Positions 15,234 to 20,151 of a DNA stretch of 20,265 nucleotides are shown here, in pieces. The position numbers and the translations under genes are program-made. The notes beneath the pieces are model-generated. The model had not been told where the DNA came from and ran no database searches. It saw only the letters and a program-made list of their open reading frames with translations. Location of the stretch: the IMG/VR virus record IMGVR_UViG_3300021301_000019; one strand, written 5' to 3'. Numbering within the stretch: the stretch's first letter is position 1; each line of letters begins with the position of its first letter. The stretch is from a virus.

Positions 15234-15859
15234 GCGATACAATTGTTTTATTGGAAGAAAGAAAGGAGATTACTACCTTCTTATTGGATGATGGAGTTAA
15301 GACATTAGTCGATAATGTAATAACAACATCTGGTAGTAGTCTTGGATACGAGTATTCCAATAAGTGCGTAGTTGATGACATACTCTGTATTTCAGACAAA
15401 TCAGCAATAGGAAAGGAATCACTCAGAAAATACACTGGCGATGCAACAGAAGTTCCTGTCGGCGTTCTTGTCAATGAACCGGTCGTAATGACAAATGGTG
15501 AGAGAAAAGGAAGCGTGCTTCTCTTAGGAGGACTCTACAGGCTGAAACTGGCTTCAGGCCAAATAGTTAAAACCGCTGATAGAATCAAACTGTCAGCCAA
15601 TGGGGCTCTTGTCGATAATGCTGGAGAATTTTTGGCATTCCATCCCGTTGCAAATTCTGATGAATACAATTATGTTAATTGTTTCCAAGTGAGTTTTGGA
15701 GGTAAAGGAGAGAAAGGAGACACCGGAGATACAGGGGCTGCGACTGTAATCCTCGGGTCTTATGATACTTTCGAAGAACTGATAGCAGCACATCCAACAG
15801 CCAATGAAGGCGCTGCATTCCTAGTGAATGGGGAGCTATTCGTTTGGCATAACGATTAA
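15230..15859 (+). CDS. Capsid decoration-like protein fused to a short collagen stretch and a truncated fibre module
   Basis: N-terminus paralogous to 12927-13697; [12 protein letters not shown]; ends GSYDTFEELIAAHPTANEGAAFLVNGELFVWHND. Confidence 0.6.
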   Translation: MSDTIVLLEERKEITTFLLDDGVKTLVDNVITTSGSSLGYEYSNKCVVDDILCISDKSAIGKESLRKYTGDATEVPVGVLVNEPVVMTNGERKGSVLLLGGLYRLKLASGQIVKTADRIKLSANGALVDNAGEFLAFHPVANSDEYNYVNCFQVSFGGKGEKGDTGDTGAATVILGSYDTFEELIAAHPTANEGAAFLVNGELFVWHND

Positions 15860-15884
15860 AAATTAAATTTAAGAGGTGAAAAAA

Positions 15885-16757
15885 ATGTCATGGACAAGTG
15901 TTGGTACAATAAAAGGACCAAAAGGAGACACAGGAGATAAAGGTGACAAAGGAGAAAAAGGAGATGCATTTACTTTTGATGACTTCACTCCTGAACAGTT
16001 AGAAGGCTTAACCGGTGCAAAAGGTGATAAAGGAGATAAAGGTGACACTGGTGATGTAGGTGCAACAGGTGCCACTGGTGAAACCGGAGCAAAAGGAGAT
16101 ACCGGAGCAACCGGGGAAACCGGTGCAAAAGGCGATACTGGAGATACAGGAGCAACTGGTGAGACTGGTGAAACCGGTGCCAAAGGAGATACTGGTGATC
16201 CGTTCACAATTTTCAGAACATATGAAACTGTTGAAGCAATGAATGCTGATGCAGCTAATGTTCCTGAAGGATCCTTTGTAGCTATTCAATCCACTGTTGA
16301 AGAGGAAGCAAACGCACAATTATATTTAAAAGGTGCAAACAGCTTCACTTTCATAATGGACATGTCCGGTGCAACAGGTCTTAAAGGTGATACTGGAGCA
16401 ACCGGAGACACCGGTGCAACCGGTCCACAAGGCGCTACTGGTGATAAAGGTGAAACCGGAGACCAAGGACCTCAAGGATTAACCGGCGAGAAAGGTGACA
16501 CTGGAGCTACCGGGGAAACTGGAGCAAAAGGGGATACCGGAAACACTGGAGATAAAGGAGACACCGGGGAGAAAGGCGATACTGGAGATACTGGAGCTAC
16601 AGGTGAGAAAGGTGACACTGGTGAAACCGGTCCTCAAGGATACAGTACAATCATCAAAGGGTCTTATGCAAGCTATGCTGATTTAATTGCAGCTCATCCT
16701 ACCGGCACCACCGGCGATGCATATATTGTTGACGGAGAATTATACGTCTACCAATAA
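15885..16757 (+). CDS. Collagen-like fibre protein (Gly-X-Y, Thr-rich)
   Basis: GAGGTGA RBS; long [15 protein letters not shown] runs interrupted by [11 protein letters not shown] and RTYETVEAM modules. Confidence 0.9.
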
Positions 16758-16762
16758 AAAGA

Positions 16763-16820
16763 ACTTCCTAAAAAACTCCCTTAGGAAGTACTGGCTAATT
16801 TGCTAGTACTTCCTTTTTTT
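16763..16820 (+). terminator. Terminator-like hairpin with overlapping alternative stem
   Basis: GGAAGTACTGGC-TAATTT-GCTAGTACTTCC plus T7; ACTTCCTAA (16763-16771) can pair with TTAGGAAGT (16781-16789). Confidence 0.7.
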
Positions 16821-17892: not shown

Positions 17893-17894
17893 GA

Positions 17895-19001
17895 GTGATA
17901 AGAGTGAGTATAGCCGATAATGTTATAACAACAAATACAAACCTTGCAATCGCAAGGACTGAGATAAGAAACAAGTTAACAAAGTATGGAATCTATTTTA
18001 CAAACGATGACGACATATTCACGTTAGTTAGAAGAGCACAATACCTCACAGGAAAGTTTAAAGGAGGTGGAAGTGTAAGCTATCCCGATGGACAAGTTTT
18101 CAGTGAAGATGAAAATGAAGTAGAAGTAAGCATTTATGATAAAAACTACGAGGGTCTTATAGATTATCCGGTTGATGTTATAATCACAATCAATGGCGTT
18201 GAGACTCATTACATGGCATTGTCAATTGACGGATACAAGACAATAACAATAAATATTCCAAAAGGAGCCAGTGAAGCATTGATGGAAATATATGCCGGAG
18301 ATAAAGTAATGTTTTCAGATACATTCAATGTATATGCATTCTATTACGGAAGGGAGGAAATAACCTCGGATGATGTTACAGTATGGAAATATCCGTCAAC
18401 CGCTTCAGTAACATTGTCTGATTACGTTTGGGATTCAGGCTATAAAAAGCGTGGTCTTCAGATTTCAAAAGCATATGGGGCCAGTGAAGCTGCATATACA
18501 ATACCAACTGAAATGATTGATGGAATCTATCTTGGTGCAAGTTATGAAAGCAGCTATCAGGGAATCCACTTTCATGCACAAATCGTTCCGCAGTATTCAA
18601 GTAGTAGCGGATGGGCATGCGGTATAGGACTTTTAACATCAAATAGGTTGTCACATTACCGTGACAATGCAATACTTGAACTTGGAGCATATCCTGGTAA
18701 AAAAGGAATCAGATATTCAGGAACAGACCATCTGATAAACGAGGACTACTGTACCAGTGGGCAATTGACATTAAATAGTGTATGGTATGACTTTGACTTA
18801 TATTATCGCTCAGGCGTTGGATGGAAAGGAGTAATATCAAACAACGGGACTGTAGTGTATTCAAATGTTAATTCATCTCCTCCGGGTTCCGTTGGAAGAT
18901 ACCTTCAGATGAATAGAGTCTATCCTGTGCTGATGATATATGACTATGGCGGAAAAGGAATATTCAGGGATGTAAAGATTACTCCATGGGATGGTGATTA
19001 A
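17895..19001 (+). CDS. Putative receptor-binding protein (shared helical anchor, Ig-like and lectin-like domains)
   Basis: N-terminal NLAIARTEIRNKLTKYGIYFT...LVRR resembles that of 17038-17892; aromatic-rich C-terminus (WYDFDLYY, GIFRDVKI). Confidence 0.55.
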   Translation: MIRVSIADNVITTNTNLAIARTEIRNKLTKYGIYFTNDDDIFTLVRRAQYLTGKFKGGGSVSYPDGQVFSEDENEVEVSIYDKNYEGLIDYPVDVIITINGVETHYMALSIDGYKTITINIPKGASEALMEIYAGDKVMFSDTFNVYAFYYGREEITSDDVTVWKYPSTASVTLSDYVWDSGYKKRGLQISKAYGASEAAYTIPTEMIDGIYLGASYESSYQGIHFHAQIVPQYSSSSGWACGIGLLTSNRLSHYRDNAILELGAYPGKKGIRYSGTDHLINEDYCTSGQLTLNSVWYDFDLYYRSGVGWKGVISNNGTVVYSNVNSSPPGSVGRYLQMNRVYPVLMIYDYGGKGIFRDVKITPWDGD

Positions 19002-19002
19002 A

Positions 19003-20151
19003 ATGGCTGAAAAGGAATGGATTGAAATCGGACAAGTAATTGGTGATACTGGGCCTAAAGGGGATACTGGAGATATAGGGATAGGAACAATAATAAAAGG
19101 ACATTATGACAATTATGCGGACTTTATTGCAGTTCATCCTTCAGGAAAACTTGGTGATGCATATATTGTCGATGGCAGCTATTACTACTGGAATGAAAAC
19201 GGATGGGCTAACGCCGGTTCTGTTAAAGGAGATACTGGTGAAACCGGGGCCAAAGGCGATAAAGGTGATAAAGGAGATACTGGTGCGAAAGGTAACACTG
19301 GAAAGACTGGGCCAAAGGGAGACACTGGAGATACCGGTGCAGGCGTTACCATTAAAGGTTCATATAATACTTACGTGGAATTAATTGCTGAACATCCAAC
19401 AGGTAATGAGGGCGACAGCTATTTAGTTAACGGATCTCTTTATGTCTGGAATGGAACTGCTTGGGAAAACGTAGGAAACATAAAAGGAGAGAAAGGTGAA
19501 ACCGGTCAACAAGGTGTTAAAGGTGATACAGGTGATAGTGGCTTTTCACCAACAGTTAATGTCGACCATTCTACTGGCCAGATAGTAATCACAAGCGAGG
19601 AAGGTTTAGCTATAATTTCATTTGATGAACTCAAAGGAGATACTGGACCTCAAGGAGTTAAGGGAGATACAGGAAACACTGGTGATGCATTCACTTTCGA
19701 TGACTTTACACCAGAACAATTGGCAAGTCTGAAAGGGGCAACTGGGGATACTGGTGCAACAGGAAGTAAAGGAGACAAAGGAGATAAGGGCGATACTGGT
19801 CCTGCTACTGATGAAAACGCAGGATGGAAACTGCCAGTAGATAAGATATTGACCACAACAACATTGCCGACTGGTGTCAGCAAAGGTTATCGTGTAGCCA
19901 TTGTTACCAGTTCTGTAATGGCCATTAAAGAATACAATGGAAGTTCCTGGGAAACTGAAAGCTTGGATGCATATTCAGTGATACCATTAAAACATTCCGG
20001 AGGTATACAGATGTATTTGGCAAAAGCTAGTGGTCCAGTATATATGGGTGTGGAATACGGAGTATTCGGGAAATTCAGATTCATGACTCAAGCGGCATAT
20101 GATGCGTTAGGTAGCTATGATGAGGATACAATTTATTTCGTGAGAAGTTAA
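19003..20151 (+). CDS. Collagen-like fibre protein with two intact GSY/HPTG/GDAY modules and a phage-fibre C-terminal motif
   Basis: GGTGA RBS; Gly-X-Y runs; [11 protein letters not shown]; C-terminal MTQAAYDALGSYDEDTIYFV motif common in tail/head fibre proteins. Confidence 0.9.
   Translation: MAEKEWIEIGQVIGDTGPKGDTGDIGIGTIIKGHYDNYADFIAVHPSGKLGDAYIVDGSYYYWNENGWANAGSVKGDTGETGAKGDKGDKGDTGAKGNTGKTGPKGDTGDTGAGVTIKGSYNTYVELIAEHPTGNEGDSYLVNGSLYVWNGTAWENVGNIKGEKGETGQQGVKGDTGDSGFSPTVNVDHSTGQIVITSEEGLAIISFDELKGDTGPQGVKGDTGNTGDAFTFDDFTPEQLASLKGATGDTGATGSKGDKGDKGDTGPATDENAGWKLPVDKILTTTTLPTGVSKGYRVAIVTSSVMAIKEYNGSSWETESLDAYSVIPLKHSGGIQMYLAKASGPVYMGVEYGVFGKFRFMTQAAYDALGSYDEDTIYFVRS

Follow-up and report, generated by a model that had tools for sequence, protein, structure and literature searches.

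In chaperone-usher pili, an incomplete immunoglobulin-like (Ig-like) pilin fold that lacks its C-terminal G strand is completed by the N-terminal strand of the next subunit, through donor-strand complementation. In the endospore appendages of Bacillus known as F-ENA (F-Anchor, F-BclA), N-terminal peptides that augment β structure couple collagen-like trimers to fibre parts (PMC12357932). The long tail fibre of bacteriophage T4 (gp34-gp35-gp36-gp37) is described (PMC5537660) as the product of consecutive genes that give rise to successive segments joined end to end non-covalently. Here we describe a fibre locus in a viral DNA sequence of 20,265 nucleotides (IMG/VR record IMGVR_UViG_3300021301_000019; the whole stretch analysed is referred to as the window, and its genes by their start positions), in which a 48-residue protein module with collagen repeats on both sides is interrupted at two gene boundaries, 15230/15885 and 15885/16843, each time in the loop that precedes its last strand, while two intact copies are present in gene 19003.

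The likeness of this arrangement to chaperone-usher pili would lie in the completion of a β fold by the N-terminal strand of the next, separately encoded subunit, which in the present case is proposed from sequence and weakly supported by a complex model. The two differ in that trimers would here be joined beside collagen helices, with no chaperone or usher and with one or two joints per fibre rather than a polymer. Nor does the module have an Ig-like pilin fold, since AlphaFold2 predicts a strand, a helix and three strands in 48 residues, and no pilin was among its structural matches. F-ENA appendages are similar in having an anchor protein, a shaft and a tip fibrillum, but they use DUF4183 head-neck subunits and hook peptides instead of one small module split between two collagen proteins, and no sequence or family link to them was found using Pfam and a PDB sequence search. 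The T4 long tail fibre is not homologous to the locus, belongs to the tail and lacks collagen-like segments; to our knowledge, its joints do not consist of a domain split at a loop. Finally, the trimerisation domains of the multiplexins (collagen XV/XVIII) and the adaptor domains of tailspikes resemble the module in being small, with four strands and one helix, and in lying beside trimeric rods, but they are single-chain and without sequence similarity to the module, and we know of none that is split between two gene products. Literature searches yielded no account of a small collagen-flanking module that is cut at one loop and divided between two gene products. Viral fibres built of segments have been described, as has strand complementation; what would be new is the way of joining trimeric rods by a split module.

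The product of gene 15230 (15230-15859) ends in ...GELFVWHND, with a TAA codon at 15857-15859, so that two to three residues lie beyond the last strand retained. Gene 15885 stops one residue past the strand ...GELYVY. Three genes carry the strand motif within one to five residues of the initial methionine, followed by collagen triplets. In a six-frame scan of the window, this motif (W-x3-G-x-[IV]-x-G) was found at five sites only, and the half-module motif at four. When the C-terminus of each upstream protein was joined to the N-terminus of its downstream neighbour, the two composites matched a profile of intact modules over its full length, with 66.6 and 76.4 bits; a control with shuffled pairs is no true null for these scores, and no significance test, because any orphan half-module combined with any orphan strand scores. 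Genes 15230, 15885 and 16843 are in frames 2, 0 and 1, respectively. The observations on which the original prediction was built were all confirmed from the sequence, namely that the intact module occurs twice in gene 19003, that genes 15230 and 15885 stop at the same turn and that the missing strand opens the next genes, as were the out-of-frame junctions with spacers of 25 and 85 nucleotides and a ribosome-binding site for each downstream gene. The split is real, and far beyond chance.

A survey of homologues for a conserved split position, proposed with the original prediction, gave a clear answer. All 120 listed clusters of gene 15230 homologues (82-94% identity, 191-210 residues) end at the module loop with ...(V/I)(W/S)-x(2-3), the Trp being present in 119, and the position of the stop is constant within one residue. 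Both junctions are found as in the window in Caudoviricetes sp. vir323, the closest public relative (79% DNA identity over 15236-16883, identical gene order), and in two proviruses of genome G001, the nearest genome used for comparison. Across 46 loci from prokaryote genomes, gathered with a four-sequence alignment of the module, 17 of 20 orphan half-modules are followed within 160 nucleotides by a strand-opening gene, and at least two of the three exceptions resemble a broken gene or the end of a locus. Half-modules occur only where the chain is interrupted and, in viral loci, each N-terminal strand outside the class of gene 19003 comes after an orphan half-module. (The homologue search with gene 15885 was dominated by collagen-rich proteins and did not list true orthologues; it was used solely to survey N-termini.) In relatives, the strand that opens gene 15885 reads M-x-W-[TEKI]-S-[VA]-G-x-I-[KQ]-G-PKG, and the half-module at its end likewise terminates in YV[YF]Q. 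Indirect support from several sides thus marks the split as a conserved functional feature, and docking of the consecutive products, with the module formed anew between them, is most likely.

The arrangement is found in a second lineage. The cultured Bifidobacterium phage PMBT6 and four viral contigs have three consecutive genes with an equivalent split, in a short form of the module. At the first junction of this lineage, the upstream product ends in ...GDTY(I/V)DL(E/T)TG(D/A)VY... before its stop and the next gene opens with MAWTATGGNLKGPKG; at the second, ...GSLYLDLDTGNVYAFNA and a stop are followed by MAWSNVGNLKGPKG. No further split was seen in the remaining viral loci retrieved with the module, about 58 of 64. 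The split thus recurs, but is not common.

Four classes of half-module and strand can be distinguished, always matched by adjacency (Table 1). In classes C and D, the stop and the start lie three bases apart (TGG GAG GAA TAA NNN ATG; L080 5350-5420, L108 and L117), and the ribosome-binding site GGAGG is encoded within the Trp-Glu-Glu codons that end the half-module. The hairpin of the second window junction (GGAAGTRCY...RGYACTTCC), a run of seven to nine T and the GGTGAT are retained in five relatives (L002, L100, L102, L106 and L109), with compensatory changes in the stem, e.g., GTACT/AGTAC versus GTGCC/GGCAC; the shaft and stalk genes are thus separated by a conserved element that resembles a terminator or an attenuator. 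As a separate observation on half-module A, the window has Ala at 15785-15800 where all 120 listed homologue clusters have Asp (EGAAFLV versus GDAF(L/I)V), a position occupied by Asp in 450 of 565 intact modules.

Table 1. Features of the fibre locus and neighbouring genes, with positions in the window, and the four classes of half-module and strand.
Feature	Position	Strand	Basis
Decoration-like paralogue of the anchor, 256 residues, with another C-terminal part	12927..13697	+	BLASTP against gene 15230: 25% identity, 140 residues, E 1e-6
Glycosyltransferase-like gene, stop overlapping the start of 15230	14634..15233	+	weak Pfam Anp1 and GT2; phrog_1574 E 8e-21
Anchor domain of 15230, residues 1-155, two β sub-domains, capsid-decoration-like	15230..15694	+	AlphaFold2 pLDDT 85.7; VIA-align
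Short collagen-like stretch of 15230, five G-X-Y triplets	15698..15742	+	read from translation
Orphan half-module A (socket 1), module positions 1-36 and HND, then TAA	15743..15859	+	profile match 1-36, 57 bits
Junction 1 spacer, 25 nucleotides, ribosome-binding site AAGAGGTGA at 15871-15879	15860..15884	+	sequence; 25-31 nucleotides, frame 0 or +1 in relatives
Orphan last strand A (plug 1), 11 residues, N-terminus of gene 15885	15885..15917	+	motif and profile
Shaft of 15885: collagen repeats, globular insert of ~55 residues, further collagen repeats	15918..16646	+	Pfam Collagen E 2.3e-27; alignment A4
Orphan half-module B (socket 2), ends ...GELYVYQ, stop 16755-16757	16647..16757	+	profile positions 1-35, 64 bits
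Junction 2 spacer, 85 nucleotides: hairpin 16784-16813, T7 run 16814-16820, GGTGAT 16834-16839	16758..16842	+	sequence; hairpin and T-run in five relatives
Gene 16843: strand B MAWVNVGNIKG, one to two collagen triplets, stalk ending ...NLTLLGS	16843..17034	+	motif and profile
Variable gene, N-terminal helix motif in common with 17895, candidate binding tip	17038..17892	+	motif N-x-RL-T-x-L...LR...I-x-Y
Second variable gene with that N-terminal motif	17895..19001	+	motif; no family matches
Gene 19003: class-3 N-terminal strand 19018-19044, intact modules 19087-19230 and 19345-19488, collagen, Phage_tail_C tip	19003..20151	+	Pfam PF24243 E 9.6e-11
Class A: half-module ...FVWHND; next gene M-x-W-[TE] and ten further residues			
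Class B: half-module ...YV[YF]Q; next gene M-x-W-V-N-V-G-N-I-K-G-[DE]TG			
Class C: half-module ...YVWEE; next gene MTWR[ND]VGNLRG			
Class D: half-module ...YIWEE; next gene MTWEYAGRIKG			

The module itself represents a large family of repeats in fibre proteins, for which Pfam has no model. A profile built from four intact copies retrieved 2238 representative proteins at E <= 1e-3 among 1.84 billion, frequently with many copies per protein. Neither the module nor the anchor, nor any of genes 16843, 17038 and 17895, could be assigned to a family with Pfam and PHROGs, and matches were solely to generic collagen or tail-fibre families. The AlphaFold2 model of the module, made with a 49-sequence alignment (predicted local distance difference test score, pLDDT, 91.8), has strand 3-7, helix 10-16 and strands 25-28, 31-35 and 40-45. 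The breaks between the genes lie in loop 36-39, which separates the final two strands and is the sole block of columns of variable length in the alignment. The module profile had no match among PDB sequences at E up to 1, and Foldseek searches with the models of the module and the anchor returned nothing at E up to 1e-3. VIA-align served as the second structural comparison for both models. With it, the best matches of the module were the N-terminal domain of Geobacillus virus E2 ORF18 (7chu, Z 6.2) and the collagen XV/XVIII trimerisation domains (Z 4.8-5.0, root-mean-square deviation 2.6-2.9, 46 of 48 residues). The N-terminal adaptor domains of trimeric tailspikes (7chu, 6e1r and Mtd) were also among the matches. 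For so small a domain, these structural matches are suggestive rather than conclusive.

On this evidence, it is likely that consecutive products dock non-covalently through completion of the module. In class A, module positions 26 and 33 are Phe, and the strand bears Ser at position 42; among 565 distinct intact modules, the usual Asn42 is present in 57%, and in none of the five with Phe at both positions. Such a pattern would be expected if half-modules and strands touched directly and paired with their cognates, and it speaks against the binding of 15885 to itself. Moreover, a complex of three copies of 15230 residues 155-209 with three copies of 15885 residues 1-32, predicted using ESMFold2, had a median interaction prediction score from aligned errors (ipSAE) of 0.34 (0.47, 0.34, 0.32), compared with 0.02 for the best control. 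At least 86% of contacts agreed between runs, and the pLDDT of the partner was at least 64. The mark set for this method was attained by 58 of 80 solved complexes and by two of 110 mismatched pairs; in the range of ipSAE <= 0.60, those attaining it were just seven of the 80 solved complexes together with both passing mismatches. The model thus lends weak support to the docking of 15230 and 15885.

Relatives in which genes are fused provide the most telling evidence. In provirus L080 there is only the first junction; its second protein spans the chain from the strand to the ...NLLGS stalk, with plain collagen at the site of junction 2. In provirus L081 and in the proteins P0273 and P0312, the anchor, collagen and stalk are in one chain without any module. 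In P0271 and P0272 a single chain runs from the anchor through an intact module to a 19003-type tip, and the virus of P0271 (L082) has this one gene in place of the window's six-gene cluster. The 16843-type stalk is fused to the shaft in L080, but to the anchor in L081 and P0273. From this logic of fusion and fission it follows that the separate products would form one structure and be in contact at the break. The original prediction held that single fused open reading frames (ORFs) with random breakpoints in relatives would refute the plug-and-socket system. Fused relatives do exist, with an intact module or plain collagen at the break site, but the breakpoints of the split forms are never random. 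The accompanying suggestion that the fibre diversifies without DNA rearrangement is not supported, since relatives vary by gene fusion, fission and recombination, that is, by DNA rearrangement. Genome G001 alone holds four related proviruses (contigs C22, C8, C4 and C37; L078-L081) with three fibre layouts, having two, one and no junctions.

The identification of the first protein as a decoration protein, also part of the original prediction, is indirectly supported by fold matches and by a paralogue, gene 12927. In VIA-align, the top 13 rows for the anchor are exclusively capsid decoration or cement proteins (Z 5.5-7.6, 54-61 aligned residues per sub-domain), including those of Borrelia phage BB1 (Z 7.6), the base of the phi29 head-fibre protein gp8.5 (Z 6.8-6.9), and T1 and Haloferax virus HFTV1 (Z 6.8). 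Residues 100-155 match P21 SHP (Z 5.7) and residues 99-155 match lambda gpD (rank 18, Z 4.7); Foldseek matches of the anchor have E 4e-3 or higher. The N-terminal domain of 15230 therefore resembles the capsid-binding base of phi29 gp8.5 and of the beta-tulip decoration proteins (lambda gpD, P21 SHP, BB1, T1, HFTV1), and bears a trimeric fibre. Proteins of that kind bind as trimers at three-fold or quasi-three-fold sites of the capsid. A collagen-like capsid binder is known in SPP1 gp12 (PMC7602432). The models suggest that the fibre probably sits on the head, comparable to phi29 gp8.5 or SPP1 gp12. The fibres of gp8.5 and the decoration proteins are, however, single polypeptides, whereas the fibre here would continue in separately encoded segments, and the likeness is structural only, below Z 8.

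In the arrangement we propose, 15230, 15885 and 16843 would give three successive trimeric segments of one collagen-like fibre, of which 15230 would be the capsid-decoration-like anchor, with the fibre projecting most likely from the head, like phi29 gp8.5. Each upstream protein would terminate in an incomplete module (strand, helix and three strands in the whole of ~48 residues), and in each downstream protein the missing strand would come right after Met-x and lead directly into that protein's collagen helix. Each of the three half-modules of the upstream trimer would then be filled by an N-terminal strand of the downstream trimer. The completed module would restore the structure seen in single-chain relatives, and the segments would be linked without a covalent bond. 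Because half-modules and strands belong to matched classes, the order is probably anchor, shaft and then stalk, and the matched classes favour such an ordered assembly over a polymerisation of 15885. The stalk would presumably bear the variable products of 17038 and 17895. The split, its conservation, the adjacency rule, the fused relatives and the predicted fold stand as observations; from them we infer that the segments physically dock, that the fibre is on the head, in which order it assembles and what the stalk does, and with this that the joint is a new non-covalent connection in a segmented viral fibre.

Several points weigh against this proposal. The location on the head is a moderate inference, since the matches of the anchor are below Z 8, and databases label relatives of gene 19003 'upper tail fiber'. 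More generally, all structural matches of the module and the anchor lie below Z 8, a range in which common arrangements score too. The pass of the complex model is weak and may reflect mere likeness to intact modules. The covariation comes from five sequences and is not corrected for kinship, and the adjacency of matched classes could stem from co-inheritance rather than recognition.

Alternatively, there may be no docking at all: the cut could be a by-product of recombination at module DNA, with the N-terminal strand nucleating or capping the collagen helix, the C-terminal stub tolerated and the proteins attached separately. The repetitive nature of collagen and module DNA is in keeping with this, as are the relatives plainly shuffled by recombination and the likeness of the module to the collagen XV/XVIII trimerisation domains. 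In addition, L081 and many genome loci contain strands of the 19003 type although their 4 kb upstream region is devoid of orphan half-modules, so that another role for an N-terminal strand is possible. Such an explanation would nevertheless leave 15885 and 16843 without a recognisable attachment domain, and it sits poorly with the single-chain relatives, which equate the three products with one fibre. It would also have to account for half-modules that occur solely at breaks and nearly always directly upstream of a strand-first gene, for a stop held constant within one residue across the 120 clusters, and for the equivalent arrangement in the Bifidobacterium phage lineage. We consider it unlikely.

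The original prediction went further than the proposed docking of neighbours and envisaged a combinatorial plug-and-socket kit, in which 15885 polymerises head-to-tail into fibres of variable length while 16843 and 19003 compete as caps for the same half-modules. That 15885 bears both a strand and a half-module would allow this, W-x3-G-x-[IVL]-x-G is common to all strands, and the natural fusions P0271 and P0272, which link a 15230-type anchor to a 19003-type tip via an intact module, show at the level of predicted chains that one fibre can be made of anchor and tip. The N-terminus of gene 19003 (MAEKEWIEIGQVIG; the start is backed by an upstream GGTGAT and by homologue N-termini) carries, however, the motif EWI[EA]IGxVxG, which is conserved in 118 protein clusters and forms a class distinct from A-D. 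Together with the proviruses noted above that have this strand and no half-module nearby, this speaks against 19003 as an alternative cap. Furthermore, in every provirus checked, the strands outnumber the half-modules by one and the surplus strand is always of the 19003 type. Finally, pair A (FLV..LFVW with W-[TE]-S-V-G) is consistently unlike pair B (Y[IL]V..LYV[YF] with W-V-N-V-G-N), a difference that parallels the rare intact modules with Phe at both positions. We therefore regard the kit in this form as improbable.

Recoding or an artefact (read-through, a frameshift, a hop, a sequencing error or a pseudogene break) is scarcely credible: although both window junctions would require an identical +1 shift and certain relatives are in frame across a junction, the conserved frame relation and signal expected of programmed recoding are absent, as the frame relation is 0, +1 or +2 among close relatives, two TAA codons stand in frame in vir323 and L080, a separate Shine-Dalgarno-like site and ATG precede every downstream gene, the conserved hairpin and T-run lie in junction 2, no slippery site is held in common, and the break is kept in more than 100 independent assemblies.

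If the docking of consecutive products through the split module is correct, it would account for the long modular fibres of these archaeal viruses, probably on the head, in which relatives range from one to six genes per structure. A bolder extension, which we put forward tentatively and regard as rather doubtful, is that the split module is a portable trimer-to-trimer connector, with at least four matched classes in Methanobrevibacter viruses and a separate occurrence in Bifidobacterium phages. Segments could then be added, dropped or swapped by gene gain, loss, fusion and fission while assembly is kept ordered, and cross-reactions (15885 with itself, 19003 with the anchor) might vary the length or the tip of the fibre. 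A short, self-assembling and possibly orthogonal connector of trimers would be of potential use in protein engineering. The hosts concerned are dominant methanogens of the rumen and gut, and their viruses are almost unstudied structurally.

As to the source of the sequence, the recorded host of vir323 is Methanobacteriales, homologues bear the source name Methanobrevibacter sp., and related loci derive from Methanobrevibacter genomes assembled from samples of ruminants and of the human gut. These signs identify the window as proviral DNA of a Methanobrevibacter-type methanogen. It is AT-rich, with an integrase gene at its start (339-1466; Pfam Phage_integrase), after which come a portal-like gene and other virion genes that were placed via synteny with a relative.

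Matches to the collagen repeat (PF01391, cutoff 27.2 bits) were obtained for gene 15885 (95 bits) and gene 19003 (50 bits), and residues 357-381 of 19003 match Phage_tail_C (PF24243) with 41.3 bits against a cutoff of 23.7. The genes that precede 19003 are variable: the C-terminal parts of 17038- and 17895-type genes are unrelated and provirus-specific, and their products may be exchangeable binding tips that attach to the ...NLLGS stalk of 16843. A 19003-type gene is nearly always preceded by a 17895-type gene that ends in ...EPW and two to five further residues (the exception is provirus L078), and this end might be the docking site of the 19003 N-terminus.

Upstream of the fibre genes, the paralogue 12927 is kept in all related proviruses, and the start of gene 14634 was set by homologues that open with MDKKILIAVPTF. 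A small conserved ORF at 13757-13948 (63 residues) holds GHWFYWNGTKYVDSG and has the C-terminus ...LYYSITWEAQ; its GHWFYWNGTKYVDSG bears a faint likeness to the last two strands of the module, which at E 0.07 in a small search is not significant. The idea that gene 12927 or this ORF is a divergent half-module for the 19003 strand was dropped, as profile matches had E 0.07-0.9, again in a small search. Further upstream, language-model features give a 398-residue gene (11730-12926), which lies before the decoration paralogue, a likeness to concanavalin-A-like lectin, Laminin_G_3 and DUF2341 (score 0.90; a lead). It is probably not the major capsid protein, which vir323 encodes elsewhere. Finally, a DUF3800 gene (E 7e-8) lies antisense amid the virion genes, at 9380-9841 on the minus strand.

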